Shown one piece after another: positions 31,305 through 48,394 of a stretch of DNA of 64,000 nucleotides (positions are counted from its first letter, which is position 1; the number at the start of each line of letters is the position of its first letter). The DNA is from a virus. Taxonomy: Duplodnaviria > Caudoviricetes. The stretch is from the IMG/VR virus record IMGVR_UViG_3300029267_004155; one strand, written 5' to 3'. The notes below the pieces were generated by a model. The model did not search any database. It saw only the letters and a program-made list of their open reading frames with translations, and was not told where the DNA came from. The translations under genes were made by a program, and so were the position numbers.

Positions 31305-32205
31305 ACTCGAAGACTCCCCGCCTCTCCGACGCTTCCGCGAACGGCACCCAGCCGCAGGCCCTGAGGATGCTCGGGACGGCGCGGCTCCGCGCCATCGAGC
31401 CGAGGCCGACCTTCCGGGCCAGCTTGCCGACACCTATCCTGTGGGACCTCCTGCGTCCCTGGTGGGACAGGTGCCACGCCAGGGCCAGCGCCACGCAGCT
31501 CGGGGCCCGGGCCAGCTCCAGCGGGAAGAACCATGGGGAGGACGAGAGGGCCTCCACGTATCTTGGGGAGAGATGGGCCTCGACGTCGTTCCCGCAGACG
31601 GCCGAGCCGAGGAGGTAGTCCTCGGAGACGAGGTCCTCCAGCGCCCGGGAGAGCGAGCGGCCCCAGGAGGTGCCGGGGCTCTTGCCGACCAGCTCGGCGA
31701 ACCGGCGCTTGTGGAACTCGACCATGCGGGCCTCGGGGTCCACGTGGCCGTTCAGGGCGTGCCATCCGATGCCGAGCAGCGTCTGGAACGCCGTCAGTCT
31801 CAATCCTCGGCCCTCTGAGCGGCTGCCGGCCAGGAAAGGGCTCCAGAGCACGCGCGGGGCGGCCGTCCACGCCACGACGGACGCAAGGGCCTTCCTGGAG
31901 GGGGCGCCCCTCGGCCTCCCGCCGGCGTGGAGCCGGTCGTGGCACGCGACGCACAGGGTGACGCCCTCGCACGAGTCGTCGTCGTGCATGGCGACGGCGT
32001 GGGCCAGGGCGTCGTCCGGGTCGGGGTGCAGCCTGAGGACTCCGACGATCACGGCCCGCAGGTCGACCACGTGATGAACCACCAGGTCGTCCTCGCGGTC
32101 GCAGATCAGGCAGGCCGGGTGCCTGTTCCTCTCCACCCATCCCGCGTAGGCGACCGAGGCCCTCGTCCTCCGCTCGATCTCGCTTGTCTGGACTCGCTTC
32201 GGCAT
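31231..32205 (-). CDS. HNH-like zinc-binding domain + helix-turn-helix-like domain protein
   Basis: CLICD...VVHHVVD...TLCVACHDRLH; EFHKRRFAELVGKS...LSRALEDL; no good + strand ORF here; own TATAAT upstream. Confidence 0.7.
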   Translation of the reverse strand: MPKRVQTSEIERRTRASVAYAGWVERNRHPACLICDREDDLVVHHVVDLRAVIVGVLRLHPDPDDALAHAVAMHDDDSCEGVTLCVACHDRLHAGGRPRGAPSRKALASVVAWTAAPRVLWSPFLAGSRSEGRGLRLTAFQTLLGIGWHALNGHVDPEARMVEFHKRRFAELVGKSPGTSWGRSLSRALEDLVSEDYLLGSAVCGNDVEAHLSPRYVEALSSSPWFFPLELARAPSCVALALAWHLSHQGRRRSHRIGVGKLARKVGLGSMARSRAVPSILRACGWVPFAEASERRGVFEFRLRASGTVPIHSLRESLWDSLRR

Positions 32206-32218: not shown

Positions 32219-32346
32219 CGCGGGGGACGTGGAGTCAGGAAAGCGGGACTCGCAGTTCTCCACGGGAGGTGGTCGGCGCGACCCTATGCGCGCGCGTATT
32301 GCTATGTGGGGTCCATGCCCTGGGGGTTCCTGGTCGTTTTTTGTGA

Positions 32347-32471: not shown

Positions 32472-32733
32472 ATGGCTGGCAGGGCCATTAGGCTTTATCA
32501 TGGCACGTCGGACAGGCAGGCGGCGAGGATCAAGTCCGGCGGGATCGGGAACGCCACGGGAAGTCCTCAGTGGTACATGTTCTCGACCGACAGGGATGCC
32601 GAAGGCGGCCTACTACGACCTGGGCGGGATAGGCGACAACGTGATACGGTACGACATGGACAAGTTCCGGAGCAGGGTCACGAAGACCGGGCACTGGGGT
32701 CCGTGGGACCTGAAGACCGAGAGCGGGCTATAG
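32472..32733 (+). pseudogene. frameshifted or chimeric ADP-ribosyltransferase-like gene
   Basis: AAGGAG SD; LYHGTS...WYMFSTDRDA, then coding-like sequence (KAAYYDLGG...) continues in another frame from about 32600. Confidence 0.5.
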
Positions 32734-32743
32734 GAGGTTCGGG

Positions 32744-33202
32744 ATGGCAAGGAACGTTTTCGACAGGCCGAGCAAGAAGCGGGTGAGGGTGCCTGGGGAG
32801 GACATGGCGATGATGGAGGAGGCGTCCGTGGCCGGCGACCTGGTCCGGCTGGCCCGGGAGCTGACGGCGGTGACCCCGAGGTTCACGGTCAGGGTGGGGC
32901 GCGGATCGGCGTCGGGCAACCGCCTGTTCGAGATGTTCGCCCCTCTCAGGACCGGCGAGTACGACAAGGCCGCGATCGGCAAGATGTTCGACGACGTCGA
33001 CAAGGAGGCGAAGAGGGTGGTGAAGGCGGTGGCCTCGAAGCTGGGCGCGTCGTTCAGCCGGCTGACGCCGGCGGCGATGAGGACGTACGTCGACCCTCAG
33101 GACTTCCTGGTCGGGGGCGTGATCGAGGGCGACGTCGGGGCCGAGGACGTGGCCGACGCGTTCCAGGGCGACTCGGCCGTCCGGCAGGCATGGGTGGAAT
33201 GA
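32744..33202 (+). CDS. cassette protein with degenerate internal tag
   Basis: AGGAGG SD; VAGDLVRLARELTA at about 32827. Confidence 0.75.
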   Translation: MARNVFDRPSKKRVRVPGEDMAMMEEASVAGDLVRLARELTAVTPRFTVRVGRGSASGNRLFEMFAPLRTGEYDKAAIGKMFDDVDKEAKRVVKAVASKLGASFSRLTPAAMRTYVDPQDFLVGGVIEGDVGAEDVADAFQGDSAVRQAWVE

Positions 33203-33216
33203 TTTCAGGCCGGAGG

Positions 33217-33244
33217 GTGGAAAGACCTGCTCGTTCGGCAATAT
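33217..33244 (+). promoter_or_regulatory. promoter-like motif GTGGAAA-N13-GGCRATAT (copy 3)
   Basis: Intergenic between 33202 and 33267. Confidence 0.6.
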
Positions 33245-33266
33245 GAAGTGGGAGTCGTAAGGAGTC

Positions 33267-33578
33267 ATGACGATGGACAGGAAGAAGATTGCGACGGAGC
33301 TGGTCGAGGCGGCGAAGGACCTGGCCGGGGCTCCGAGGGGCCGCGAGGCGCGCGGGACGGACGTGTCGTTCTTCGTGAAGGTGGACGACGTGTTCACGTT
33401 CCCGTCGAGGGGCGTGGGGGCGGGCCAGGTCGAGGTCCTTCAGGACATGATCGAGGGCGCGATCTGGGGTCAGAGGGCGAAGCTCCTGGCGGCCGTGAAG
33501 GCCCAGCTGAAGAAGGACGTGGCCAGGGACGAGGACTTCCGCGAGTGGATGGAGATGCACAACGTCGAGGTGAAATGA
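33267..33578 (+). CDS. leader-tagged cassette protein
   Basis: MDRKKIATELVEAAKDLAG from 33273; AAGGAG SD. Confidence 0.8.
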   Translation: MTMDRKKIATELVEAAKDLAGAPRGREARGTDVSFFVKVDDVFTFPSRGVGAGQVEVLQDMIEGAIWGQRAKLLAAVKAQLKKDVARDEDFREWMEMHNVEVK

Positions 33579-33940
33579 TGGACGGAACGAAGGTTGCGAA
33601 GGAGCTCGTCGAGGCCGCCAGGGAGCTGACCGGGGCGTCGCTGACCAAGGAGTGGAAGAGGATGCTCCCGGGTCAGGAGTTCAAGATTCGGTGGGACTTC
33701 CGCGGGCTCGGGGCGACGGAGGCCGGGGCCATGCGCGGGCATCTCGACGACATGGAGAGGGAGGTGGCCAGGGACGTGAAGGCCATAGAGAAGGTGGCGG
33801 CGGTCTCCAAGGCGCCGTCGCCGCGCGTGGTGGTCTATCCGGGCGGCGGCTCCATCGAGATCGGCGCGGTGACGTTCGCGACGCCGGACGCCGACGTCGA
33901 CTTCGTCCGGGTCCTGGAGAGGCTCGGGTTCAGGAGGTGA
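33575..33940 (+). CDS. leader-tagged cassette protein
   Basis: MDGTKVAKELVEAARELTG; ATGA coupling. Confidence 0.8.
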   Translation: MMDGTKVAKELVEAARELTGASLTKEWKRMLPGQEFKIRWDFRGLGATEAGAMRGHLDDMEREVARDVKAIEKVAAVSKAPSPRVVVYPGGGSIEIGAVTFATPDADVDFVRVLERLGFRR

Positions 33941-33942
33941 GC

Positions 33943-34236
33943 ATGGACGGCAGGGAGATTGCGAGCGAGTTGGTGACGGTCGCTCGCGACCTCGTGTCCG
34001 TCGACGGGCGCCTGTCCGACGCCGTGCGGAGAAGGAACCTGCTGGAGGACGGGAGGCTCGTGAACGGCGACGACCTGGACCGGCGGGCCGGCCAGTTCTC
34101 GGCGTCCGAGAGGCGCCGGAAGGAGAAGAGGCTGGAGAGGGTCGAGGCGCTGATGCAGAAGGCGTACGACAAGATAGACGGGTCCCCGGAGCTGATCGAG
34201 GCGTACGAGGAGCGTTCGGGCGTGGCGTGGGACTGA
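33943..34236 (+). CDS. leader-tagged cassette protein
   Basis: MDGREIASELVTVARDLVS; AGGAGG SD. Confidence 0.8.
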   Translation: MDGREIASELVTVARDLVSVDGRLSDAVRRRNLLEDGRLVNGDDLDRRAGQFSASERRRKEKRLERVEALMQKAYDKIDGSPELIEAYEERSGVAWD

Positions 34237-34281
34237 CGAGGAGGTCCGCGAGTGGATGGACGACAACGGCATCGAGGTCGA

Positions 34282-35580
34282 GTGAAGGCGGAGAGGTCAT
34301 TCTTGGGCGCGTCGAGGACATCGAGGCAGACGGAGGACTACCGGCGCGTGGAGGCGCTGGTGGGCGCGCTTCGCGACGCCTTCCGCCCCCTCGGTGGCTA
34401 CGGGAAGAAGGTGGAGGCCGGGATGGTGTCCAGGCTGGCGGCGGCCGCCGCCAGGCTGGGGGACGCCATCGACTTCAAGTTCGAGGACGAGAGCAAGGAG
34501 CGGCTCTTCGAGAAGGTGGTCAGGCGCAAGCTGGGCAACTTCGAGAAGCTGCTGGCCGGGCTGTCCGGGCTCCGGACGCCGGAGGACTGGGACGCCTTCC
34601 GGAAGAGGAACGGGAGCGGGTCGAAGTCGGTCTGGGAGAAGGTGTACGATTACTCGTCGATGCTTCTCCGGGCGATAAGCTCGCTGGACGTGGAGGTGGA
34701 GGGGCACTTCGACGTCGGCGGGTGGAGCGTGGTGCAGCTGACGTCGCCGAGGGGCGACTGGTCGCGGAGCCTCGGGAACGCGCTGGACTGGGAGCTGCGG
34801 GAGGCGACGAGGAGGGTGGCGGCGGCGGGTCTCGGGGCGGTGGCCGGCGGCCGGGTGCTGGCCTATCCTGCGAAGGTGCTGCCGGGCGTGTACGGCGGCG
34901 GGGCGCTGGCCTACTACCAGAAGTCGAAGGACCTCATGGCGGTGGCGGCGGCCGGGGACCCGAGGAGGGTGGTCCGGACGCTGGTCCACGAGATGGGGCA
35001 CCGGTACTACTACCGGGTGATGGCAGGGGCCGGCAGGTCGGCGTGGGGCGAGTTCTTCGGGGCCAACGTGGGGTTGGCGGACGTGGACTCGATCATCTCC
35101 GACTGGGAGAGGTGGGCCGAGGCGAACAGCGGGGACTACTGGGTCGGGAAGTACGGGAGGTTCCTGGGGACGTACGCGGGGCACCTGGCGAAGACCGACC
35201 CGGGGAGCCTGATGTGGCTGGAGATGGTGGCGAGGGCGATAGGGATCGACGAGCCTCAGAGCTTGTCCGGGTACAAGCGGGGGGCGGTTCCCGGGCTGGA
35301 CCAGCTGAAGGCGAGGAAGGGGGAGGCGAAGGTCTTCCTCCATCCGGTGACGGCATATTCGGGGACGAGCCCGGAGGAGCTGTTCGCGGAGACGTTCGCG
35401 AACGTGGTGACGATGGGGCCGGCGAGCGTGCCGGAGATCGTGAGGGAGGCTTTCAAGAAGGCGGTGCCGAGATTCAGGGGGGCCTCCGGGGGCGGCGCGT
35501 CGAAGGTGGACGGCAGGATGGCCGCGAGCGAGCTGCTGCTCGCCGCCAGGGAGCTGGTCGCGGCCGAGGAGTCGATTTGA
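34282..35580 (+). CDS. zincin-like metallopeptidase with C-terminal tag copy (alternative start 34252)
   Basis: TLVHEMGHRYY (HExxH) and downstream EELFAETFA; ends DGRMAASELLLAARELVAAEESI. Confidence 0.78.
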   Translation: MKAERSFLGASRTSRQTEDYRRVEALVGALRDAFRPLGGYGKKVEAGMVSRLAAAAARLGDAIDFKFEDESKERLFEKVVRRKLGNFEKLLAGLSGLRTPEDWDAFRKRNGSGSKSVWEKVYDYSSMLLRAISSLDVEVEGHFDVGGWSVVQLTSPRGDWSRSLGNALDWELREATRRVAAAGLGAVAGGRVLAYPAKVLPGVYGGGALAYYQKSKDLMAVAAAGDPRRVVRTLVHEMGHRYYYRVMAGAGRSAWGEFFGANVGLADVDSIISDWERWAEANSGDYWVGKYGRFLGTYAGHLAKTDPGSLMWLEMVARAIGIDEPQSLSGYKRGAVPGLDQLKARKGEAKVFLHPVTAYSGTSPEELFAETFANVVTMGPASVPEIVREAFKKAVPRFRGASGGGASKVDGRMAASELLLAARELVAAEESI

Positions 35581-36689
35581 GCCATTATCAGTCAGACAGC
35601 AGGAGGGTCAGGTTCCCGGACCCGGCCGACCAGTGGGCCGACTGGCTGACCCGCGGGCGCTACACGAAGGTCACCTACGAGGCGGTCCCGATCGCGAAGG
35701 TGCGGCACGGCAAGTGGAGCGAGGACAGGTACGAGAGGGCGCTCGCGCACATGATGGCGGGCCGCAGGCTGGACCCGGTGAGCTTGGCGAAGGTCGGCGG
35801 CGCCTACGAGGTGGCGGACGGGAACCATCGCGTGGCGGCGTCGGCGGAGATGGGGTACACCCATGTCCCGGCGCTCGTCCACGAGGAGATGGCGGAGGCG
35901 CCCCCTGGCAGCCCCCCGCCGGGGACCCGGAGGAAGATGGTGGAGGAGGAGTTCGGGACCTTCCTGAACGTGCTGAGGCGCTTCGTGCCGGCGGGGCTGG
36001 AGGTGTCCTGGAAGAGCGTGTCGGAGAACGGCTACGTGGCCGACGTGTCGTTCTGGACCCCGTGGCTGGAGGAGAAGGACTATCAGCTCGAGGTGAGGAT
36101 TCTGGGCGACGGGAGGAGGGAGGCGACGTTCAAGCGTCCCGGCGGGTCGTTCAGGAGGAGGTTCGACGAGGGAGGCCCGGAGGCGTTCGCGAGGGCCTTC
36201 GGGAAGTGGCTCGGGGATTTCGTCGAGGATCATCCGGAGTTTGACGAGCATAGGAGAGAGGCGATGGACGGAAAGAAGATTGCGAGGGAGCTTGTCGAGG
36301 CTGCTCGGGAGCTGGCGGCCGACCAGTTCGACCATCCGAGGATGGAAGAGGCGCTGGACGTGCTGACGGACGCCTCTCCCGGGCTGCACGCGTGGCTGAG
36401 GAGAAACACGCGTCTGGGTCCGTATTGGGAGATGACCTACAAGAGCCGCGCGGGCATGAGCAGCAGTCTGGACGCGGGGCTCGGGGCCGTGCAGGACTTC
36501 TACGCGAAGGAGGAGCGCATGCGCGGCGGCGACTTCTGGAAGGTGAGGGTGTACGCCAACGTTGACGGCGAGGTTATCGTGAAGTCCTCCATGGCGGGCG
36601 ACCGGTACATGTTCAAGGACGTCAAGCTCAAGTGGGCCGACCTGAAGAACCCGGCCAAGGTGTTCAGCCGGTCGAGGCTGCCGCGATAG
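35577..36689 (+). CDS. ParB/sulfiredoxin-like domain protein fused in frame to a leader-tagged cassette (internal start 36264)
   Basis: GAGGAG SD plus TTG; LDPVSL...YEVADGNHRVAAS.EMG.THVPA; internal AGGAG SD plus MDGKKIARELVEAARELAA. Confidence 0.7.
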   Translation: MSHYQSDSRRVRFPDPADQWADWLTRGRYTKVTYEAVPIAKVRHGKWSEDRYERALAHMMAGRRLDPVSLAKVGGAYEVADGNHRVAASAEMGYTHVPALVHEEMAEAPPGSPPPGTRRKMVEEEFGTFLNVLRRFVPAGLEVSWKSVSENGYVADVSFWTPWLEEKDYQLEVRILGDGRREATFKRPGGSFRRRFDEGGPEAFARAFGKWLGDFVEDHPEFDEHRREAMDGKKIARELVEAARELAADQFDHPRMEEALDVLTDASPGLHAWLRRNTRLGPYWEMTYKSRAGMSSSLDAGLGAVQDFYAKEERMRGGDFWKVRVYANVDGEVIVKSSMAGDRYMFKDVKLKWADLKNPAKVFSRSRLPR

Positions 36690-36829
36690 TCGGCGTTCGC
36701 GAGGGCCTTCGGGAAGTGGCTCGGGGATTTCGTCGAGGATCATCCGGAGTTTGACAGGAGAGGGAGGGAGTCGATGGACGGAAAGATGGTCGCGAGGGAG
36801 CTTGTCGAGGCTGCCAGGGAGCTGGCGGC
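36182..36829 (+). repeat. ~138-bp direct repeat pair (36182-36319 and 36692-36829) flanking one cassette
   Basis: First 64 bp identical (GGCGTTCGCGAGG...GGAGTTTGAC), then similar SD and leader; offset 510 bp. Confidence 0.95.
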
Positions 36830-37073
36830 AAGCGATCAGTTGCGGGCATTGCGCCTGTTGAACGACATTGGCGATCATCGGCTCGACATTAAGGAGGTGC
36901 GCTCTGGCGTGTTTTCGGCGACGAACCGCAGGGATGGGGTGCCGTTGGAGCTTTCGCGCACGCGAGGACGTCCGAATTGGCACAGTGAGTTCTCGTTTTC
37001 CGAGCTGGAAGATTGGATGGGCGGTCGCATGACCAAAAAGCAGTACGACCGCTATTTGGAAGCGCTGAATTGA
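36774..37073 (+). CDS. leader-tagged cassette protein
   Basis: MDGKMVARELVEAARELAA; GGAG SD. Confidence 0.8.
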   Translation: MDGKMVARELVEAARELAASDQLRALRLLNDIGDHRLDIKEVRSGVFSATNRRDGVPLELSRTRGRPNWHSEFSFSELEDWMGGRMTKKQYDRYLEALN

Positions 37074-37241
37074 GGAGGCCATGATGGATAGGAGAGCCAG
37101 GGGCGGGTTCATGGGCATGAAGGGCGCGACCATCTCGTGTTCCGGGACGGGCGCCGGAGGGAGTGGAAGGTTGGCCGCGACGAGCTGAGCTTCAATCGGC
37201 GCTTCTGGCTTCCGAGGAAGATCATGAGCAAGGAGATCGAC

Positions 37242-37532
37242 ATGGATGGGACGAGGATCGCGAGAGAGCTTGTCGGGGCCGCGAGGGAGCTGACGGGCGC
37301 CGTCGGGATGGACCGCGGGATAAACCCCTCGAAGTTCTGGCTCGTGCTTCATCCGACCCCGGACTCGGAGATCGGGGACGTGGTGTGGGAGACGGACCTT
37401 CACGGCTTCGGGCTCTGGGCTCGGGGCGGTGGCCCGCGGTTTTGGCTTGGGGTGGCGGCGGTGAAGGGCGACAGGGGCTCGGCCATGAGGATGGGCCAGG
37501 AGTTGCTCGACGAGCGTGACGGCATAATGTGA
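37242..37532 (+). CDS. leader-tagged cassette protein
   Basis: MDGTRIARELVGAARELTG; AAGGAG SD; preceded by a frameshifted remnant at 37081-37241. Confidence 0.78.
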   Translation: MDGTRIARELVGAARELTGAVGMDRGINPSKFWLVLHPTPDSEIGDVVWETDLHGFGLWARGGGPRFWLGVAAVKGDRGSAMRMGQELLDERDGIM

Positions 37533-37536
37533 GGAG

Positions 37537-38064
37537 ATGGACATGGCCAGGAGGCACATCGTAACCGACATGGGTTCCGCGACGGAGTTGAGGAGCGACT
37601 CCGGGGAGACGCTGTCGATTCCGCGCTACGGGGCCTGGTCCTCGTCGGGCCGGAAGCCGCAGGTGGTCGACACGTCCGACGACCTGGGGGCGCTTCTGAG
37701 GAAGTACGACCTGACCGAGGCTGACGTGGTCAAGATGAGGGGTGCCTCCGACGACGGCGACGTGGCAGGGAGGGTGGCTGCCGGCTTTATGCCGAGAGTG
37801 GCTGGCGAGTCCCTCATCGACCTCGTGATCGACAAGAGGACCTTCTACAAGCTGGAGAGCCAGGTCGACGAGCAGACCTGGGAGCTGGCTCGCGAGGTCT
37901 ACGTCGCCCTGATGAGGGCCCTGGAGCTGGACCGGTCGCAGCACGAGGCGCTGAGCCGTCTCCGGAACAGCGTGACGGGCAGCTACTCCGAGGCGATGCA
38001 CAGGAACAACATGTTCAAGGCGGCGCACGCTCTCGGGATCAAGCTCCCGAGCGCGTCGTTCTGA
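37537..38064 (+). CDS. two-domain cassette protein with internal RVAxxF tag
   Basis: GAGGAG SD; VAGRVAAGFMPRVA linker. Confidence 0.75.
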   Translation: MDMARRHIVTDMGSATELRSDSGETLSIPRYGAWSSSGRKPQVVDTSDDLGALLRKYDLTEADVVKMRGASDDGDVAGRVAAGFMPRVAGESLIDLVIDKRTFYKLESQVDEQTWELAREVYVALMRALELDRSQHEALSRLRNSVTGSYSEAMHRNNMFKAAHALGIKLPSASF

Positions 38065-38074
38065 GGAGGCCGGC

Positions 38075-38503
38075 ATGGACAGCAAGAAGATTGCGAGAGA
38101 GTTGATCGAGGCTGCGAGGGACCTGGCCGGGGCGGAGAGGCCGAACCCGCTGGACGGCCGCACGAAGCGGTCTGCGGCGAACTTCGTGAACAAGCTGTTG
38201 CGGAAGTATGGGCAGGCCGGCATCTTCCGTAACGAAACGAGCTGGCGTCCGTTGAAGATACTGTGGGACGAGCTGCGGGACGAGGGGATACCGTTCGACC
38301 TGAAGAGCGCCGAGTACGGCATCTCCCCGTCGGGGCGGCAGATGGGCCTGGGGATGCCGGACAATAAGACCTGGAAGTTCGAGATCGAGTTCCTGAACGA
38401 CCGTGGGAGGCCGACCAGGCTGTACGGAATCGTGATAGCGTCCGGGGCCGGCACGGTGGAGGACCCGATGGGGTCGTACGACTTGAACGCCTACGTGAGC
38501 TAA
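38075..38503 (+). CDS. leader-tagged cassette protein
   Basis: MDSKKIARELIEAARDLAG; GAGGAG SD. Confidence 0.82.
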   Translation: MDSKKIARELIEAARDLAGAERPNPLDGRTKRSAANFVNKLLRKYGQAGIFRNETSWRPLKILWDELRDEGIPFDLKSAEYGISPSGRQMGLGMPDNKTWKFEIEFLNDRGRPTRLYGIVIASGAGTVEDPMGSYDLNAYVS

Positions 38504-38515
38504 AGGAGAGCCGAG

Positions 38516-38800
38516 ATGGACGAGAAGAGGATGGCCTGGAGGGTGGCGTCGAAGGTCATGGCCGCGCGCCGCCCCGAGATAACCGGGGACCCCCGCAGGG
38601 ACCAGGGGATATGGGAGGGGATCGAGGACGGGGTCTACGAGTTGATCCAGGAGGCTTTAGAGAACGGCTTCGGGAGCATCGACAAGAGCGGGGCCCGGAA
38701 GGTGATCCGGGACGTGGCCCGGGACCACGACGCCGACCAGAAGGCGGTGGAGCACTACTTCTGGGAGGAGTATCACAACACGGAATGGCCCGAGGACTGA
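38516..38800 (+). CDS. cassette protein with RVA-type leader
   Basis: MDEKRMAWRVASKVMAA; AAGGAG SD. Confidence 0.78.
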   Translation: MDEKRMAWRVASKVMAARRPEITGDPRRDQGIWEGIEDGVYELIQEALENGFGSIDKSGARKVIRDVARDHDADQKAVEHYFWEEYHNTEWPED

Positions 38801-38811
38801 GGAGGTTCGAG

Positions 38812-39375
38812 ATGGGTGGCGTGAAGAGATGGCTTGAGGACACGGTGTACGCGGTGGCGGAGGCTCTCGGGGCGGACGGCGACGACGGCGACGTCTTCGA
38901 CGCGATCCATGACTGGCTGGAGGAGGAGGGCCTCGGGCCGTCGACGCCGGTCGACCGGATCGTGGCGCGGGCGAGGCGAGAGCTCCGTGGCAGGTTGAGG
39001 GGCGCGTCCTCGCCGGCGCGGGTTGAGGAAGTCCCAGCAAGGAGGGACGACATGGATGGGACGAGGATCGCGAGCGAGCTGGTGGGGGCGGCCAGGGAGT
39101 TGACGGGCGCCCCCCTTTCCGCCGAGGACGAGATGATCGACCAGGTGGGGAGGAAGATGGGCGTCGCGATGAGCGCCCTCGGAAGCGCCAGGGAGAACAT
39201 TGCCAGGGCGCTCATGTCGGCGACGTCGATCCGGACGATGGAGAAGAGGCTGGGCGTCGCGAACCCGAGGGAGCGCGCCAGGATCGAGGCTCTCGCGAAG
39301 AAGCTGGTGGTGGCGTCGGAGATGGCCGACGAGGCGCGGGAGCTGGCGGCCAGGGTGATGCAGGACTGGACATGA
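38812..39375 (+). CDS. cassette protein fused to leader-tagged cassette (internal start 39052)
   Basis: AGGAGG SD; internal AAGGAGG plus MDGTRIASELVGAARELTG. Confidence 0.75.
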   Translation: MGGVKRWLEDTVYAVAEALGADGDDGDVFDAIHDWLEEEGLGPSTPVDRIVARARRELRGRLRGASSPARVEEVPARRDDMDGTRIASELVGAARELTGAPLSAEDEMIDQVGRKMGVAMSALGSARENIARALMSATSIRTMEKRLGVANPRERARIEALAKKLVVASEMADEARELAARVMQDWT

Positions 39376-41150
39376 ACATGAGGCTGGCCGACGTGGAGGA
39401 CGTTCTGGAGCGGATCGAGCGCACGGTCTGGGACGACGCGCTTGCCGAGGCCATGCGGGACCGGGTCGAGGACCTGTCCCTGTCCGACAGCGGGAAGGTC
39501 TACGGCCCGGTCGAGTTCGGCGAGCCTCGGCAGATGTCGAGGAAGCGGAGGCTGGACATCGGGTGGACGGACCACGCCGAGTACCGGAGCGAGCTTCGGG
39601 ACGTGGACCCGGGAAAGGTGAACGACTCGGTGACGAAGGTGATGCGGGACCGGCTCCGGAAGCAGAGGACGCGGGGCAAGGAGAAACTGAAGGTTCCCGG
39701 AGGCACGGCGGTGGTGGACTACGACCTGAGGGGCAAGCCGGCCGACGCGGACGTGGTGACGGTCTGGGCTTCCGAGTCGGGCAGGCGGGCCGGATGGCGC
39801 GACGTCGCCCGCGAGGTGCCCGGATGGGCGCTCGACTGGATGAGGCGGGCCAGGCGGAGGTTCTCGGACGAGGTCCTCCGGGTGTCCGTCGCCATTGCCT
39901 TCGGGGGGGTTGAGACCACTGGCGCAACGATAGAGAAGGTCTCCAGGAGGATGGGCGTGGAGCTTGGCGCCGACGAGATCGTCCACGTCCTCCACGCCGT
40001 GGAGGAGGTCGTAGAGATGGCGCACGGGCTAAGCGCCTCGGACGAGCGGCCGGACGGGGTTGCGAGAGAGCCGCTGCGGCTGGCCAGGGAGGCGCTGGGG
40101 TCGGAGCTGGGGAGTAGGGGGGTGATCAACGGCACCGACGAGGGCGAGTGGTGGCTCGGGGAGCCTCGCGGCGACTGGTGGCTCCTGTATGGGATGGAGT
40201 CGTCCAGGCATCCCGAGCGCGGCTCGGTGGCGGGGGCGACCGAGCGGCATCCGGGTTTCCTGAAGGCGCTGGGCGGCATCGTGAGGAGGCATCCCGAGGC
40301 CTCCTCCTGGGAGCTCGCCTTCGACGGCCCCTTCGTCCCGGTGGCGGAGCTGCTTGGCCGGGGCTCGGGCCCGGGCGTGAGATGGGCGTCGGTCGTGTTC
40401 TACCACGGCACGTCGGAGAGGGCGTGGGAGCAGATACGCCGCCAGGGCCTCAGGCCGCGTTCCGGGACCAACGTCGAGCCCGCGTACGGGATCGGGGTCG
40501 GGGCAGAGCCGGGACGCGTCGACGCGGTGTACCTGACGACCCAGACCGGCATGGCGCGCTGGGCGGCCAGGGACGCGGCGAGGATGACGGGAGGCGCCCC
40601 GGTGGTTCTGCGGGTGAGGGGGATCGACGGGGACAAGGCGCGGGCGGACGGGGACAGCGGGGAGGCGACCGCCGAGGCGAGCCTGGGCCGCATGGGGTCG
40701 ATCGCGTACGTCGGGGACGTCCCGGCGTCGAAGGTGGAGCTCCACGAGGTCCTGCGGGACCGCAGATGGAGGAAGGAGGCGGGTCGTCGCGGCCACGTCC
40801 TCCGGATTGCCCCGGGTGGCGGAAATGACAGCAAGGAGGAGAGCGAGATGGATGGGACGAAGATCGCGAGAGAGCTGGTCGGGGCGGCGAGGGAGTTGAC
40901 GGCCAGGGGCGAGATGGTGGAGCGGGACTACCTTCCGAGGGAGGCGCTTCCGTATCTCGACGAGCGGGACGAGGCCTACCAGTTCACCGAGAGAGGCAGG
41001 CTGAGCATGTACGCGGACGGCAGGAAGACGGTGGTGGTCTTCTTCAAGATGGAGTTCATGGCCGTCTTCGAGTATGGCGGCGCCGGCGTGACCAGGATGC
41101 TGAAGGCGGACCCGGTCGTGATGGCGGACTATTTCAGGACGGTTCTCTAA
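39372..41150 (+). CDS. polyvalent protein: possible RNase-like domain, ART/Tpt1-like NAD-binding domain and leader-tagged cassette (internal start 40848)
   Basis: WTDHAEYRSELR; FYHGTS..WEQIRRQGLRP...VYLTT...PVVLRV; AAGGAGG plus MDGTKIARELVGAARELTA. Confidence 0.75.
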   Translation: MNMRLADVEDVLERIERTVWDDALAEAMRDRVEDLSLSDSGKVYGPVEFGEPRQMSRKRRLDIGWTDHAEYRSELRDVDPGKVNDSVTKVMRDRLRKQRTRGKEKLKVPGGTAVVDYDLRGKPADADVVTVWASESGRRAGWRDVAREVPGWALDWMRRARRRFSDEVLRVSVAIAFGGVETTGATIEKVSRRMGVELGADEIVHVLHAVEEVVEMAHGLSASDERPDGVAREPLRLAREALGSELGSRGVINGTDEGEWWLGEPRGDWWLLYGMESSRHPERGSVAGATERHPGFLKALGGIVRRHPEASSWELAFDGPFVPVAELLGRGSGPGVRWASVVFYHGTSERAWEQIRRQGLRPRSGTNVEPAYGIGVGAEPGRVDAVYLTTQTGMARWAARDAARMTGGAPVVLRVRGIDGDKARADGDSGEATAEASLGRMGSIAYVGDVPASKVELHEVLRDRRWRKEAGRRGHVLRIAPGGGNDSKEESEMDGTKIARELVGAARELTARGEMVERDYLPREALPYLDERDEAYQFTERGRLSMYADGRKTVVVFFKMEFMAVFEYGGAGVTRMLKADPVVMADYFRTVL

Positions 41151-41161
41151 GGAGGTTCGAC

Positions 41162-41467
41162 ATGGACGAGAGAACGATGATCGACAGGGTTGCCGGGGCC
41201 TTCCGGGCCGAGGTCGTGGAGATGGAGGAGGAGGAGCCTCAGGGCTCGACCCCTGTCAAGGAGAGGCGCAAGGAGGCTGGTCGCACGGCCGATCAGGAGT
41301 ACAAGGAGAGGCGCAGAGAGGTGGACCGGCTCATGGCGAGCGTCCACAAGAAGCTGAGGAGCCACGGCATGGACCAGGAGAGGGCCCCGGATGACTGGGG
41401 CTATGCCGGCGACATGGGCCGCGTCCTGGGGCTGCTGGTCGAGATCGACGGGTTCCTGGGCGGTTGA
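41162..41467 (+). CDS. cassette protein with RVAxxF leader
   Basis: MDERTMIDRVAGAFRA; AAGGAGG SD. Confidence 0.78.
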   Translation: MDERTMIDRVAGAFRAEVVEMEEEEPQGSTPVKERRKEAGRTADQEYKERRREVDRLMASVHKKLRSHGMDQERAPDDWGYAGDMGRVLGLLVEIDGFLGG

Positions 41468-41478
41468 GGGAGACTGAC

Positions 41479-41832
41479 ATGGACAGGACATCGACGAGCG
41501 CCCCGAGGGACCCGTGCCCGGATTGCGTGAGGAAGCACCTCGGCCAGGCGTGCGTCCTGTGCCAGGAGGCGCTCCAGGGATATCCGGACCATCGCTGGCT
41601 GGCGATAGGGCACCTGGCCGAGGCGGAGGCCGAGATCGAGGGAATGTCGCCGGCCCTGGCCGAGCGGTTCCGGGAGGAGCGGAAGGCGCTGGAGGCCGAT
41701 CCTGCCCATCAGCCTCCCTTCGTGGAGCTGATAGCCTCGGTGACGGGCCTGGACGGCGTGACGGCCTGCGACTGCGGAGGCTCGATGGAGGATCGCGTGG
41801 CGGCGGCGTTCATGGGGAGGGCCGGGACGTGA
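41479..41832 (+). CDS. Cys-containing cassette protein with C-terminal RVAxxF tag
   Basis: CPDCVRKHL; ends MEDRVAAAFMGRAGT. Confidence 0.72.
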   Translation: MDRTSTSAPRDPCPDCVRKHLGQACVLCQEALQGYPDHRWLAIGHLAEAEAEIEGMSPALAERFREERKALEADPAHQPPFVELIASVTGLDGVTACDCGGSMEDRVAAAFMGRAGT

Positions 41833-42416
41833 GTGTCGATCCCAGGATGGCGTCGAGGCTGTCGTCGAGGTTGTCGGGGAGGTATGGCGGCCCTTTGTTC
41901 CGGGCTGTCGATTCGAGGGATGGCTCGGCGGCCCTCGGCGAGGGAACGTATTTCACCGACAGCCGCGAGGCTGCCATGGCCTATGGCGACGACGTTCGGG
42001 AGTTCGTGGCCAGGGGTTTGATGGTCCTTGGCACGAACAGCGGCGAGTACGAGATGGTCAGGAGGCGCGCCGACGGGGTTCGGGCCCGGCATCCGTCCGA
42101 GGCCGTGGCGAAGGTGGCCAGGATGGAGGGCTATGACGGGATATACTCGGGTCCCGTCTTCGGGCTGGTGGTGTTCGGATCGGGCATGTCGAAAGTGCGG
42201 GAGGTTCGGACGGCGGGACTGGCCGAGATGGCGGGAGGCATGGACGGGACGAAGATCGCGATAGAGCTGTTGCGGGTGGCTCGTGGGGTCGTTGGCGCCC
42301 CGGTCGACCTGGACGAGAGCAAGAGGTGTTTCCACGGGACGCCGCTGGAGAAGGCTGGACTTAGACATGACGCGCGGCGACGCGTTCGAGGGCCAGGTCG
42401 GCGTGACGGCCTGTGA
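41829..42416 (+). CDS. ADP-ribosyltransferase-like (polyvalent-protein type) domain followed by a leader copy and chimeric tail
   Basis: LFRA, GEGTYFTDSREAAMAY, GYDGI..LVVF; GGGAGG plus MDGTKIAIELLRVARGVVG at 42240. Confidence 0.68.
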   Translation: MSVDPRMASRLSSRLSGRYGGPLFRAVDSRDGSAALGEGTYFTDSREAAMAYGDDVREFVARGLMVLGTNSGEYEMVRRRADGVRARHPSEAVAKVARMEGYDGIYSGPVFGLVVFGSGMSKVREVRTAGLAEMAGGMDGTKIAIELLRVARGVVGAPVDLDESKRCFHGTPLEKAGLRHDARRRVRGPGRRDGL

Positions 42417-42484
42417 TTGTGAAGGCGCCTTGGAGGACCGCGTGGCGTCGTCATTCATGGGCAGGTTCAAATAGGGAGAAGGTC

Positions 42485-42826
42485 ATGGACGGTGAGAAGA
42501 TCGCGAGAGAGCTGATCGAGGCCGCGAGGGAGCTGACGGGGGCGAACGTCGGCCATCATCACAGGCAGGGGTCCGACTGGTACGTCGACTCCAATTTCAT
42601 CAACATCGTCCAGCACGTCTATCCGGGCGGCACCCTGGAGCACATGGGCTTCGGGGAGTTCTACATGGATACGCCGGATGGGAGGCTGGACTTCGACAGG
42701 ATGCACGGCAAGGCGTTCGAGGGCCAGGTCGGAAGGCCGCACCTGCTCCAGGACGACTCTGGCGGCAAGGTGGTAAAGAAGGCCATCAGCCTGATGGAGC
42801 GGGCTGGGAAGTCCGAGGAGGTCTGA
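42485..42826 (+). CDS. leader-tagged cassette protein
   Basis: MDGEKIARELIEAARELTG. Confidence 0.82.
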   Translation: MDGEKIARELIEAARELTGANVGHHHRQGSDWYVDSNFINIVQHVYPGGTLEHMGFGEFYMDTPDGRLDFDRMHGKAFEGQVGRPHLLQDDSGGKVVKKAISLMERAGKSEEV

Positions 42827-42827
42827 C

Positions 42828-43517
42828 GTGGACAGGGACAGGATAGCCAGGAGGGTCGAGGCCGCGGGCGTGGCCTCGGCGGTAGCCAGGGCGAAGGCCG
42901 CGGCGGTCATGGCGATAGCCAGGGCGGTCTCGACCTCCCCGGCCGTCCGGAAGGCCGTGCAGGGGATCGCCACCGACGTTGAGGCGACCGCCGGGCCCGG
43001 CGACGACGGCAGAAGGGCCATCCTCGGGTCGTCTGGGATGGGCGCGGCCCGCGACGCCGTGGCCGACGCCGTGGCCGAAGGCGTCGTCGACGCGGCGCAG
43101 AAGGCGGTCGGCAAGTCTCCGGGGAGACACCGGAGGATGGCGAAGGCCTTCGTCATGAAGGCGCTGCCGATGATCCCGTTCGGCTTCATAGACAACTTCA
43201 TCATGATCCTGGCGGGCAACGCCATCGAGGCGTCCCTGGCCAGCACGCTGGGCCTGAGCGCCATGGCGGCCGCGGGGCTGGGCAACGCGGCCTCCGACGC
43301 CGTCGGGGCCATGAGCCAGGACCGCGTCGACTCCGTTCTCGGGCGGATGGGGCTCGGGGGCCAGCTGGAGGGCGGCAGGGCGGAGGCGCTGGCCGGCTTG
43401 GCCGGCGGGGCCTTCGGGGTCGCCGTGGGCGCCCTGGCCGGAATGTTCCCGCTGCTGCTGTCGGGCTCCGTCGAGGGCTCCATGGCGGAGGACGTGGCCG
43501 ACCGCTTCCTGGGCTGA
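42828..43517 (+). CDS. TMEM65-like membrane protein
   Basis: PMIPFGFIDNFIMILAGNAIEASL..TLGLSAMAAAGLGNAASDAVG matches the TMEM65 core as I recall it; ends MAEDVADRFLG. Confidence 0.78.
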   Translation: MDRDRIARRVEAAGVASAVARAKAAAVMAIARAVSTSPAVRKAVQGIATDVEATAGPGDDGRRAILGSSGMGAARDAVADAVAEGVVDAAQKAVGKSPGRHRRMAKAFVMKALPMIPFGFIDNFIMILAGNAIEASLASTLGLSAMAAAGLGNAASDAVGAMSQDRVDSVLGRMGLGGQLEGGRAEALAGLAGGAFGVAVGALAGMFPLLLSGSVEGSMAEDVADRFLG

Positions 43518-43591
43518 GCCGAAATCGGTGCCGCCTCTCCTTCCCGTTCGCGGGGGGCAGCTTCGTGGCGTATAGTTGAGGGGAGGTGACC

Positions 43592-44569
43592 ATGTACTGT
43601 CTTCGCCCGTTCTACATGATGATAGTGGAGCCGGGCGGCGAGTGCCGCTCGTGCTGCGAGGCCCACGCCTCCAAGTCGTTCGGGAACATCCTCCGCGACG
43701 GCCCCGAGGGGGTCTGGAGGGGGGAGGGCGCCCGGGAGATGCGGGAGTCGATCCTGGACGGGTCCTACCGGTTCTGCCTGGACGGTTGCCCGATCTACCA
43801 GAGGGTGCTGGCTCTTCGCGAGAGCGGCGGCGACCCGCGGACGGGGACCATGGACCTGGGGGCCTGCGTCTCGCGGGAGCCGATGGGCAGGGACCTGGAG
43901 TGGCCGGCCCATCTGCACGTCGGGCACGACACCCGCTGCAACATCCGCTGCCGGAAGTGCCACCACTGGACCATCGAGGTCGACGAGGCCGAGACGGACA
44001 GGGTGGGCGACCTCTGCCTGGGGATGCTGCCGCACGCCAGCGGACTTGCGATGAGCGGGTGCGGGGAGCTGTTCTTCAGCCCGTCCTACGCCAAGGTGCT
44101 CAGGGGCGTCGAGGCGATGCCGAACCTCTTCAAGATGCACGCCATCACCAACGGGACCCTGCTCACGCCGGGGAGGTGGGGGTCGCTGGGGGATGTCGCG
44201 AGCAAGATCGCGAGGGGCTCGCTCAGGGTCTCGGTCGACGCGGCGACGAGGGAGACCTACGACAAGGTCCGGCGCGGTGGCGACTTCGACGTCCTGGCGG
44301 CCAACCTGCGCTTCCTGGGGTCGAGGCCGATCAGCCAGAAGCTGATGTCGATGGTGGTGGAGATGGACAACTTCCGGGAGATGCCGGCGTTCGTGAGGCT
44401 GGCGGCCGAGTGGGGCTTCCGGGCGGTCTTCGAGCAGGTGATCGGGCCCGACGGGTGGAAGCCGTGGATCGACGACGCGCCGGAGAGGGAGGAGTTCGAG
44501 GCGCTGCTGGCCGAGTCGCTGGCCATGGCCAACCTCCTGTGGACCAACTTCCAGGGGGCGGGCAGATGA
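43592..44569 (+). CDS. radical SAM protein with N-terminal SPASM/twitch-like domain
   Basis: CLRPF..IVEPGGECRSCC..GNI..VW; CNIRCRKC; GCGELF, ITNGTLL, SVDAAT.ETY. Confidence 0.85.
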   Translation: MYCLRPFYMMIVEPGGECRSCCEAHASKSFGNILRDGPEGVWRGEGAREMRESILDGSYRFCLDGCPIYQRVLALRESGGDPRTGTMDLGACVSREPMGRDLEWPAHLHVGHDTRCNIRCRKCHHWTIEVDEAETDRVGDLCLGMLPHASGLAMSGCGELFFSPSYAKVLRGVEAMPNLFKMHAITNGTLLTPGRWGSLGDVASKIARGSLRVSVDAATRETYDKVRRGGDFDVLAANLRFLGSRPISQKLMSMVVEMDNFREMPAFVRLAAEWGFRAVFEQVIGPDGWKPWIDDAPEREEFEALLAESLAMANLLWTNFQGAGR

Positions 44570-45639: not shown

Positions 45640-45669
45640 GAATTGTTTGATACCGGGGCCTTTGTTGGA
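45640..45669 (+). promoter_or_regulatory. GAATnnTTTGATA..GG.GCCTTTG motif (copy 2)
   Basis: 23/30 identical to 52940-52969 by hand alignment; intergenic. Confidence 0.55.
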
Positions 45670-45696
45670 CGGCAGAAAAGGATGAAGGAGACAGTC

Positions 45697-46428: not shown

Positions 46429-47741
46429 GACTGCTGGTGGGATCGATCTATGCCGACCGCGGGGATGGGCAGAGGGAATGGCTCTCAGTCCAGAGGCGGT
46501 TCCTCGGGGCCACGACCGAGAACTTCGACCATGTCGTCGTGGTGAACGACGCCCAGGTCCCGGACCAGACCTGGGAGGGTGTCGAGGTGATCTCGGCCAA
46601 GGACCGCAAGGACCCGTCGCAGGCCCACCTTGGTGGCTTGAACGACCTGGCCGAGTGCTTCAGGGCCCGTCGCGCCGACTACGACTACTTCCTGGTGATC
46701 GACAACGACGCCTTCCCGATCCGGAGGGGGTGGCTCGACGACCTGGCGCCGATGGTGCCGGACGGCCACATCGCCATAGCCCTGAGGAGCGAGAACCTGG
46801 AGCAGAGGCTTCACGCCTCGATCCTGTTGGCGACGCCAGGGGCCCTGGACGACCTGGAGTTCCGGCTTTCGGAGTGCGCCAGCCTGACGGGCGAGACGGA
46901 GATGGACATCATGCCTGTCCGGTGGACGACGGGGCAGCTGGGCCGGGTCTTCCCGCTGATGAGGTCCAACATGCGGAACGTGCACCCGACGCGGTGCGGG
47001 GTCTACTACGACATGTTCTACCATCACGGGAGCGGGACGCCGAACCGCGGGGAGAAGGTCGAGCGGTGGATGAGGGGCGACGCCTACTGGGACCCGGTGG
47101 TCCCGAGCGGGGTTGACGACTGCGGGCGCTTCCGTGCCCGTCTCATGCGCGACCCGGAGGGGTTCGTGGCGTGGCTGGCCGGCTGGACGCCGGACGGCTA
47201 TCCGAGGAGAGGGAGGGACGAGCCGTCCATGGCGTGGGAGCGGGACGGGGTCTCGTTCCGGAAGGTCGGGGAGGGCGACCTGGAGGACCTCATGAGGCTC
47301 AAGATGGAGGTGTGGGAGAGCAACCACTCGACCGCTTTCCTCAACATGTGCGACCAGAGGGGCTGGCTGGAGGGCCTGGGCGTCACCAACCCTGGCAACC
47401 TGGTCTTGATGGCCATGTGCGACGGCCAGGTGTTCGGAGTCCTGAAGGTGCTGGGGATCGACTGGGTGAGCCGGTCGGCCTCGGTCGGCTGGGACGTCTT
47501 CGAGGGGCGCCGCGGCAACGGCCTCGGGAAGAGGCTCGTGGCTGCCGGGGTCCGCTTCTGCGTGGACGTGCTCGGGCTGGGGAGCCTGGATGCCGAGATT
47601 CTGGCCGGGAACCACGCGAGCGCGAAGTGCGCTGTGGCCGCGGGCTTCAGGCCGGTCGGTGTCAGGAAGGCCCGGGTCTGGAGGAACGGGAGGCATGTCG
47701 ACAGCGCGGTCTACGAGTTCGTGAAGACAGGGAGACAGTGA
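46425..47741 (+). CDS. GT-A-like domain + GNAT acetyltransferase fusion
   Basis: YFLVIDNDAFP, FYHHG; RRGNGLGKRLV, NHASAKC..AGF. Confidence 0.78.
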   Translation: MRLLVGSIYADRGDGQREWLSVQRRFLGATTENFDHVVVVNDAQVPDQTWEGVEVISAKDRKDPSQAHLGGLNDLAECFRARRADYDYFLVIDNDAFPIRRGWLDDLAPMVPDGHIAIALRSENLEQRLHASILLATPGALDDLEFRLSECASLTGETEMDIMPVRWTTGQLGRVFPLMRSNMRNVHPTRCGVYYDMFYHHGSGTPNRGEKVERWMRGDAYWDPVVPSGVDDCGRFRARLMRDPEGFVAWLAGWTPDGYPRRGRDEPSMAWERDGVSFRKVGEGDLEDLMRLKMEVWESNHSTAFLNMCDQRGWLEGLGVTNPGNLVLMAMCDGQVFGVLKVLGIDWVSRSASVGWDVFEGRRGNGLGKRLVAAGVRFCVDVLGLGSLDAEILAGNHASAKCAVAAGFRPVGVRKARVWRNGRHVDSAVYEFVKTGRQ

Positions 47742-48394
47742 TGCCGTACAATCCGAATCGTCCGCCGAGGAAGCTGAGCGACTATCCGAAGAAGTTGCAG
47801 AGGCAATGGGTCCATGTCTTCAATTCATGTATGGGTCGTGGCGGCGACGAGGGGAAGTGCCACGCGATGGCGTATTCGGTGGTGAACAGGGAGATGGGCA
47901 AGTCGGGCTCCGACAGGTCGGGGCGCTACCGGGAGGTGGAGCCGCCGGCCATGGGCGCGTTCGACGACGAGATAGACGGCATCGAGACGGCGGTGGTGGA
48001 GTCTCTGAAGGATCAGGGTGGCGTGGACATGGGAAAGGAAGCGTGTATAATGAGGTGGAACAGGCAGATGGTCGCCCGGGAGCTCCTTGTCGTGGCAAGG
48101 GAGCTTTCCGGCGCGAGCTTTCAGGAAGAGGCGAAGGCGTTGAGGATGAAGGGCTATGTCCAGGACTTCTCGAAGGCGGTCGGAAAGTTCCGGCACGACG
48201 CCAACGAGTTCGTCGACAGGATGACGGCGGCGGTTGAGAATCCGTCGGCTCTCCGGGAGTTCCCGTTCCTGCGGGCGGTGCTGGGAGAGCTGAGGGAGCA
48301 GAAGCGCGGCCTCTTGCCGATGACGTTCCTGGACGACCGCGACCTCATGTCGATGCTGGAGCGCGTGGTGTGCAAAGATTCGGGGAGCTGCTGA
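47741..48394 (+). CDS. ChaB-like domain fused to tagged domain
   Basis: MPY...LQRQWVHVFNS...AMAYSVV; internal MVARELLVVARELSG at about 48068. Confidence 0.7.
   Translation: MPYNPNRPPRKLSDYPKKLQRQWVHVFNSCMGRGGDEGKCHAMAYSVVNREMGKSGSDRSGRYREVEPPAMGAFDDEIDGIETAVVESLKDQGGVDMGKEACIMRWNRQMVARELLVVARELSGASFQEEAKALRMKGYVQDFSKAVGKFRHDANEFVDRMTAAVENPSALREFPFLRAVLGELREQKRGLLPMTFLDDRDLMSMLERVVCKDSGSC

Follow-up and report, generated by a model that had tools for sequence, protein, structure and literature searches.

A portable 19-residue peptide tag on unrelated small proteins encoded in arrays by large uncultured phages

A short common address peptide on diverse phage proteins is a kind of element already known from phage T4. 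In T-even phages the internal proteins are diverse and have only a capsid targeting sequence (CTS) in common (PMC3012670), which addresses proteins to the prohead core and ends at a site for the Glu-specific prohead protease (PMC3012670; PMC5694885). In SPN3US the processed head paralogues gp53 and gp54 (phiKZ gp93 family), otherwise diverged to 34% identity, begin with an identical 15-mer, MANFVKSKLARESVE, with an A-x-E cleavage motif, which its describers likened to the T4 CTS (PMC5694885). For the polyvalent proteins of phages and conjugative elements, in turn, delivery alongside the DNA and processing have been proposed (Iyer et al. 2017, as cited in PMC7824862). Here we analyze a 64,000-nucleotide stretch of viral DNA (Caudoviricetes; IMG/VR record IMGVR_UViG_3300029267_004155; hereafter the window), in which a preliminary description had pointed to an array of genes with a common peptide tag and had read the tag as a capsid address for injected effectors, by analogy with the T4 internal proteins. 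The analogy is apt in that only the short peptide is held in common, and we find that the peptide is a real, previously undescribed portable tag.

The tag has the consensus M-D-G-x-K-I-A-R-E-L-V-x-A-A-R-E-L-T-G (19 residues) and lies on the + strand in the interval 32.8–48.1 kb, where we count 12 clear copies and at least two degenerate ones. A strict motif used as a six-frame regular expression (regex) recovers it at 33273, 33578, 33943, 36264, 36774, 37242, 38075, 39052, 40848, 42240 and 42485, and a looser one adds 35506, 32828 and 48071, every copy being on the + strand. A repeat search aligned the same 12 copies in register (families D1 and D2), and the two procedures between them confirm all twelve places reported earlier. 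When the peptide is written as a degenerate DNA pattern, the window matches it 10 times, and 100 shuffles predict 0.00 matches. Two of the degenerate copies claimed earlier, ~32827 and ~48068, are recovered by the looser regex; the third, ~40053, is very degenerate, reads VAREPLRLAREAL within a 592-residue open reading frame (ORF) and is visible only as a 77% DNA repeat (D5). Most copies do have their own Shine-Dalgarno (SD) site, a GGAG-type sequence lying within 15 nt upstream of 10–11 of the 12 clear tags, with 35506 lacking one. The DNA of copies 37242, 39052 and 40848, described as nearly identical, is in fact 89–91% identical over 57 nt.

Pairwise blastp of the parts that follow the tags gave no hit at E<0.01. 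The earlier picture of a tag followed each time by a different short domain thus stands as regards the unrelated cargos; its purely N-terminal placement does not, since 6 of the 14 window tags are not N-terminal in their open frames. The tag at 35506 is the true C-terminus of a protein with an HEMGH motif and has neither SD nor ATG. At 36264, 39052, 40848, 42240 and 48068 an upstream coding domain reads into the tag without a stop, and a further small domain follows; these five internal tags retain an SD and an ATG, so that a fusion and a separate product are both possible. The internal and C-terminal copies indicate that the helix predicted for the tag (see below) is position-independent. Decayed tag-like starts are found on further genes of the array (38516, 41162 and 42828), and the homologue of gene 38516 in another genome (P0120) has a canonical tag. 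The dissimilarity of the cargos and the comparison of codons that follows both bear out the tag as a portable module at the protein level.

A conserved segment of this sort could in principle be a nucleic-acid element, that is, a translation-initiation, operator or recombination site, with an incidental peptide. The SD, the ATG and the first 57 nt are indeed conserved together, some copies reach the 89–91% identity given above, and recombination joints fall at tags. However, third codon positions vary most, the mean pairwise identity of the window tags being 0.79, 0.78 and 0.62 at positions 1, 2 and 3, respectively. Synonymous codons differ within the window (four for L10, three for A14 and five for R15) and between lineages of 34–66% G+C, a lineage of 53% G+C writing the same residues with yet other codons, and the peptide stays constant. 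Moreover, the peptide is kept without a ribosome site or ATG at 35506 and in internal copies of the tagged proteins P0002 and P0013. These three lines of evidence place the constraint on the peptide: the tag is selected as a protein, and we disfavor the nucleic-acid reading as highly improbable.

Two successive sets, of 27 and of 140 sequences, show E9, L10 and A14 as invariant or almost so and M1, A7 and L17 as conserved in at least 90%; A7-x-E9 is conserved at 90–100% and fits the A-x-E motif of SPN3US. The core of the tag reads as two heptads, (I/V)-A-R-E-L-(V/T)-A twice, and in our own assignment the conserved residues would take the a, e and g positions, all on the same side of a helix. 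After the terminal Gly or Ala of the tag comes a variable stretch, often with Pro or Gly. An AlphaFold2 (AF2) model of the P0045 family, the cargo of tag 38075 (four sequences; mean predicted local distance difference test score (pLDDT) 70), has a low-confidence helix at residues 3–17, a coil at 18–30 and a separate alpha+beta domain. A fold search with this model gave only weak NTF2-like rows (E of 8e-3 or above), the Atlas search with P0045 was uninformative, and AF2 of the protein P0030 without an alignment was unusable (pLDDT 46).

Tags also mark the joints at which the array has been rearranged. The 82 nt before tag 36264, together with the first 56 nt of the tag itself, form a 138-nt stretch (36182-36319) that returns 510 nt further downstream (36692-36829) at 91% identity (repeat D7). 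Such a footprint is what a cassette inserted through recombination at the tag would be expected to leave; assembly graphs break there, with doubled depth. In the cassette at 42240, pieces of genes 42485 and 41464 are combined into a frame-shifted mosaic (repeats D9 and D17). Thus, at least one duplication junction and two mosaic joints are marked by tag DNA and its flank, in line with the earlier proposal that tag DNA is a recombination anchor. In the cargo family of 38075 the tag is full in two genomes and six residues shorter in two others, which implies that it can be lost and the cargo kept. The contigs of four DNA runs held no trustworthy cassette-skipping variant and no strain-level change of cargo; the cassette-skipping joints are untrustworthy because their shorter side is 21–31 nt (most 21–23) at 85% likeness.

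Tandem gene order with such duplication footprints (D7) would also be expected of a single fast-diverging paralogue family, in which the helix is merely the slowest-evolving part of the proteins' own fold or a homodimer interface and has no shared reader. The cargos are mostly short (median 86 residues behind the tag), and 140 members have almost no Pfam domain, as such a family might. Against this stand the clearly different folds and sizes of the products (an alpha+beta domain, ParB-like, TMEM65, ChaB and a zincin-like enzyme), the presence of the tag behind, or at the end of, unrelated enzymes, the linker rather than packing between tag and domain in the P0045-family model, and the loss of the tag from a retained cargo. 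We therefore regard common descent of the carriers as unlikely.

Beyond the window, 1.84 billion proteins searched with a profile of the tag yielded 217 cluster representatives (E<=0.001). The tag begins at residue 1 in 128 of the 146 representatives checked, whose median length is ~110 residues, and 15 of them have two or three tags (P0002, for example, at residues 6, 156 and 363). A 139.6-kb viral contig (G001), 43% complete by CheckV and hence from a genome of ~325 kb, has 27 tag matches (E<=1.2e-5 for 19), almost all within 72–91 kb and on one strand; a related contig of 190 kb has ~25 tagged genes in 20 kb. The tag DNA pattern is matched by at least 116 metagenome contigs, and 88 fetched metagenome loci gave 261 profile hits, on a single strand per locus and at a G+C of 34–66%. 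The hits in scaffold or head proteins that were expected at the outset did not appear: in the one relative scanned whole, none lie outside arrays, bar one weak hit.

A cellular secretion or sorting signal would occur on bacterial or archaeal proteins, but 185,579 bacterial and archaeal genomes (596 billion bases) contained no tag array and only 8 isolated, chance-like matches inside unrelated enzymes. In the searches made, the tag was found only in phage-like DNA. Pfam and PHROGs have no match over the tag, and the best match among PDB sequences (E=0.064) lies inside an unrelated hydrolase. A tblastn search of the 24-residue tag and the multi-tag P0002 against 50,697 deposited phages gave no match, at low power for 19 residues; a literature search for tag strings found none, and database records of tagged proteins have no informative name, only 'hypothetical protein' or an evident mis-annotation. 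None of the libraries searched yielded the peptide, its two-heptad form, its use at ends and internally, its copy number or such a spread among large phages without a cultured representative. Together, these observations firmly identify a portable, position-independent helix on many unrelated proteins, selected as protein and marking recombination joints.

The array of the window can be followed gene by gene. Its region is identical, with zero differences, in Logan contigs of public sediment (2018) and seawater (2021) metagenome runs, and the sequence with its odd frames is thus not a one-off assembly artefact; the frame changes near 32600 and 34150-34230, visible in plots of G+C at third codon positions (GC3) and on reading all three frames, recur in independent assemblies. 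The genes are listed below with the supporting evidence, where HMM stands for the hidden Markov model of the tag.

32472..32733, + strand: first array gene, untagged, start MAGRAIRLYHGTS (ORF list; GC3 plot with the frame change near 32600; contigs of two runs without an indel)
32744..33202, + strand: gene with a degenerate tag at 32813-32872 (..VAGDLVRLARELTAV) (loose regex; HMM 6.5 bits; DNA repeat D12)
33267..33578, + strand: tag at 33273 and an 81-residue cargo (regex, repeats, HMM 46 bits)
33578..33940, + strand: tag and a 100-residue cargo, the start overlapping the preceding stop (ATGATGG) (regex, repeats, HMM; close homologue P0035 elsewhere)
33943..34282, + strand: tag and cargo, the coding frame shifting at ~34150-34230 (regex, GC3 plot)
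34252..35580, + strand: 442-residue zincin-like protein, HEMGH at 34984, C-terminal tag at 35506-35562 without SD or ATG
35577..36689, + strand: 370-residue ORF (P0030) with a ParB-like domain, in-frame tag 36264 and a 121-residue domain
36692..37073, + strand: duplicate of the 82 nt preceding the prior tag (36692-36773), tag 36774 and a 79-residue cargo (repeat D7)
37242..37532, + strand: tag and a 76-residue cargo (regex, repeats, HMM)
37537..38064, + strand: untagged 175-residue gene within the array
38075..38503, + strand: tag and a 122-residue alpha+beta cargo (P0045), the tag shortened in orthologues of two other phage lineages
38516..38800, + strand: gene whose tag has decayed (MDEKRMAWRVASKV..), the homologue P0120 of its cargo being canonically tagged
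38812..39375, + strand: 187-residue ORF (P0027) with 80 residues, in-frame tag 39052 and 87 residues
39372..41150, + strand: 592-residue ORF (P0039) with the degenerate tag ~40053, a Tpt1/ADP-ribosyltransferase (ART)-like region at residues 340-415, in-frame tag 40848 and 80 residues
41162..41832, + strand: two small genes, at 41162 (tag-like start MDERTMIDRVAG) and 41464 (Cys-rich)
41829..42474, + strand: 195-residue ORF (P0047), in-frame tag 42240, then a frame-shifted mosaic (repeats D9, D17)
42485..42826, + strand: tag and a 93-residue cargo, the best-scoring copy at 51 bits (regex, HMM)
42828..43517, + strand: TMEM65-family membrane protein with a tag-like start (VDRDRIARRVEA..) (Pfam PF10507, E=1.6e-23)
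47741..48394, + strand: outlying member (P0063) with a ChaB-like domain, in-frame tag 48068 and 92 residues (regex, HMM 21 bits)

Most of these genes are separate and encode 76–142 residues, the largest fused ORFs having 370–592. The shifted tail of gene 33943..34282 repeats the C-terminal end of gene 33267-33578 (repeat D18); at 33528-33581 and 34235-34288 the two have a common ending, D-E-[DE]-x-R-E-W-M-x-x-x-x-[IV]-E-V-[EK]-stop, with 74% DNA identity, the second reaching it via the frame change. In the related locus L037, the domain of gene 41464 precedes a tag within one ORF.

Of the domains named in the preliminary description, TMEM65 is solid (E=1.6e-23) and the ParB-like domain of P0030 weak but plausible (PHROG 26588, E=1.9e-5); the HExxH protease is a motif, HEMGH, with sub-threshold zincin profile hits, and the ART-like fold comes down to one sub-threshold Tpt1/KptA hit in P0039 (E=4e-3). 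A 2H phosphoesterase and a GNAT just downstream of the array are also solid. The former (45643-46428; 2_5_RNA_ligase2, E=7e-12) has a weak likeness (E=4e-3) to Acb1, which counters cyclic-oligonucleotide-based antiphage signaling (CBASS), and its C-terminus (..REQMARRVATATMVATRAR) resembles the decayed tag-like starts of the form RIARRVxA. The loci L037, L040 and L058 also have 2H, ChaB-plus-tag, HExxH and WGR domains and relatives of the P0039 ORF; the ChaB-plus-tag proteins adjoin the 2H enzyme in L037 and L058, and an HExxH protein is fused to a 2H domain in the L040 relative. The recurrence of the set indicates that this part of the gene content is conserved, and it recalls the repertoire of polyvalent proteins.

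Further modules follow the tags in other lineages. A second motif, E-F-P-T-x-x-A-x-x-K-Y-L-K-E-H-P-D-A-D-K-S-x-H-x-V, which belongs to no Pfam family, often stands directly after the tag, in up to three copies per protein (P0002, P0013, P0015, P0070, P0122, P0150 and L013:4365). Another, G-E-V-P-E-A-F-K-K-Q-W-K-x-K-D-K-D-x-D-G-K-E-N-E-P-K-P-D-F-L-K, contains an EF-hand-like D-x-D-x-D-G loop and is followed by a zinc ribbon after some copies (G001 contig 86205-87179, inside locus L009; L010:3647-4141; P0052; P0118). Behind the tag, 140 tagged proteins are poor in Cys, with just 0.2% of residues.

The fused genes raise the question of whether the tag is a processing signal at which a protease, the array's HEMGH enzyme or another, cuts fused cassettes into separate proteins, tags on single genes being leftovers. 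The six in-frame fusions of the window and the multi-tag proteins elsewhere (among them P0002, P0005, P0015 and P0070) are what such a signal would produce; the zincin-like gene of the array and the HExxH–2H fusion of the L040 relative offer candidate enzymes, and the set of 2H, ParB-like, zincin-like, Tpt1/ART-like and WGR domains resembles polyvalent proteins (PMC7824862). However, the 32-kb G001 and 20-kb L010 arrays have no HExxH gene, on which ground we rejected the array zincin as a universal tag protease; 128 of 146 tags are at residue 1, where cutting would free nothing; and the internal tags keep an SD and an ATG, so that separate translation is possible. A role chiefly in processing appears improbable.

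The window as a whole has a G+C of 62–72%, with a strong G-over-C skew all along and nearly all genes on the + strand, and codes for a DnaE-type polymerase and a long series of glycosyltransferase, methyltransferase and sugar-nucleotide genes; its proteins are also recorded from a contig of 298,395 nt. Near the array, only one clear gene lies on the minus strand (31231-32205). Its 324-residue product has an HNH-like CxxC...H..H...CxxCH pattern, and an AT-richer spacer of 265 nt, with a T-run, terminator-like site at 32320-32333, separates it from the divergently oriented array. Two Sel1-repeat proteins are encoded at 28884-31304 and 59482-60405, one of them fused to a GT25 glycosyltransferase. 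Straight after the array, at 43586-44569, lies a radical SAM protein whose SPASM domain is N-terminal (residues 5–68) instead of in its usual C-terminal place, followed within one long open frame by a GT4-type glycosyltransferase. At 62490-63998 lies an ORF that continues past the window end and codes for a C-5 cytosine DNA methylase split by two further domains, Hint (intein) and LAGLIDADG homing endonuclease (Pfam E=6e-9, 4e-8 and 7e-4).

None of these neighbors presents itself as a general reader of the tag. No non-tagged family is common to all arrays, so that no reader is apparent nearby. Two candidates were discarded: the Sel1-repeat protein just upstream of the array (28884-31304) as reader, having no homologue in G001, and the radical SAM/SPASM protein as a tag-modifying enzyme, since Pfam annotation of the 20-kb array of L010 showed none. 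The arrays have no excess of sigma-70-like promoters or terminators and thus resemble long operons rather than individually promoted early genes. In the G001 lineage a conserved 265-residue gene follows the array on the same strand at seven loci, and a tail tube protein lies ~4.5 kb beyond it (Atlas features 0.97, template-modeling (TM) score 0.62–0.83); PHROGs and Pfam found nothing among the genes downstream of the G001 array, the tail tube being named by the Atlas search alone. Just upstream of arrays of the 53%-GC lineage, at nine loci, is a gene for a 612-residue protein (G001 contig 91160-92998, L009) whose N-terminus is, by eye, Ro60/TROVE-like.

The tag probably docks all its carriers to one common partner. 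This partner could be an intracellular hub: the helix would bind one phage or host protein, or zip the tagged proteins together, and many small modulators would be collected on one machine or compartment, with no packaging and no cleavage. The helices of AKAPs and the docking domains of kinases, dockerins and scaffoldin, and encapsulation peptides and microcompartment shells are analogies for such an arrangement. The position-independence of the helix, the two or three tags on some proteins, the conserved a/e/g face with Ala at e, which suits tight helix–helix packing, the mixed charge of the cargos (given below), the dispensability of the tag in one cargo family and the tag-like start of the TMEM65 membrane protein in the array all suit a hub. 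Nevertheless, no candidate hub is conserved in or beside the arrays across lineages, the Sel1 neighbor having no G001 counterpart, and a hub leaves A-x-E, the best-kept feature, unexplained. We regard docking to a hub as possible, if doubtful.

The reading that we rank first, tentatively and as something short of probable, has the core of the assembling prohead as partner; tagged proteins would be cut by the prohead protease and carried along with the DNA. It is ranked so because the T4 CTS is the closest precedent, A-x-E is the best-conserved part of the tag and the SPN3US 15-mer also has A-x-E; both the prohead partner and the cleavage of the tag are guesses by analogy. The operon-like layout of the arrays and the tail tube protein in the module that follows the G001 array would also suit this reading. 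The 19 residues would be a portable docking helix of two heptads with a Gly/Ala cap and a loose linker, a common handle that gives many unrelated small phage proteins one partner, the assembling prohead core. Trimming by the prohead protease would take place at A7-x-E9, which hardly varies, and possibly also at A14-x-E16; the trimmed proteins would then be delivered together with the DNA. Domain–tag–domain fusions would enter by the same handle and may be cut apart at the tag. The tag DNA, since all cassettes share it, would also be a site of cassette duplication and recombination. A broader and more doubtful form of this proposal is that in several large uncultured phage lineages the two-heptad helix would be a general loading label, through which one prohead receptor takes up some 20 or more different small proteins per phage and fused enzymes. 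The head protease would clip them at A-x-E, and they would be injected alongside the DNA, forming an exchangeable set of first-wave tools.

Several observations weigh against prohead loading. The array of the window lies among glycosyltransferase genes, not head genes. Searches of five viral fragments with the capsid family PF25209 and the T4-type protease family PF03420 gave no match, the latter being uninformative because its protease control gave none either, and no S77 protease or phage-G-type capsid gene is present in the fragments available. The tag is also found internally and at a C-terminus (35506), unlike the classical, strictly N-terminal propeptide of the T4 CTS, from which 6 of the 14 window copies depart. 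Cleavage after E9 would leave most of the conserved helix on the mature protein. T4 internal proteins are basic, whereas the charge of the cargos here is mixed (pI, the isoelectric point, >8 in 55% and <6 in 32%), so that charge does not discriminate for or against packaging on the DNA. The resemblance to the 15-mer of SPN3US covers 9 residues and may be chance. Finally, we know of no precedent for some 20 or more different small packaged proteins per phage. As to the effector payload of the preliminary description, the recognizable enzymes (zincin-like, ParB-like, Tpt1/ART-like and ChaB) stand upstream of tags, not behind them. Since 140 tagged proteins of other genomes have almost no recognizable domain, calling the cargos effectors is a guess, and such a payload is not supported.

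Most of the coding content of giant phages is without known function, and one peptide links a large share of such material: ~14 genes in the window, some 20 or more in related phages and hundreds of metagenome protein clusters. The tag implies that its carriers are handled alike, and knowing its reader would place the whole set together, in the cell or in the virion. Were the reader the prohead, the tagged set would be the phage's injected arsenal, and the tag would be a simple handle for loading chosen or foreign proteins into large capsids, a use to which the T4 CTS has already been put. The domain–tag–domain fusions and the duplication joints at the tag show how the set of cassettes grows and is reshuffled.

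In comparison with known systems, polyvalent proteins have their likeness in the 2H phosphoesterase, ParB-like, zincin-like, Tpt1/ART-like, WGR and GNAT domains in or beside the array and in its relatives. They are single giant polypeptides, whereas here most tagged genes are small and separate, and the array proteins have no match at E<=1 to ART-PolyVal or other polyvalent-protein Pfam families. The encapsulation peptides of microcompartments, terminal amphipathic helices of ~18 residues with a loose linker, dock unrelated enzymes inside a protein shell; being cellular and unrelated in sequence, they offer an analogy only. The SPN3US 15-mer comes from a giant phage and reads K-L-A-R-E-S-V-E where the tag reads K-I-A-R-E-L-V-E, with A-x-E in both, but it occurs on only two paralogous large head proteins with propeptides of ~125 residues. 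The T4 CTS (IPI-III, Alt) is likewise a short peptide that is the sole common part of diverse small proteins, some of them anti-defence proteins or an ADP-ribosyltransferase (PMC3012670; PMC5694885), and a short terminal peptide common to unrelated proteins of one phage is found here too. The CTS, however, has 10–20 residues, is strictly N-terminal, is removed whole and belongs to about five genes, whereas the present tag is a predicted two-heptad helix of 19 residues that is also used internally and C-terminally, in some 20 or more genes per genome.

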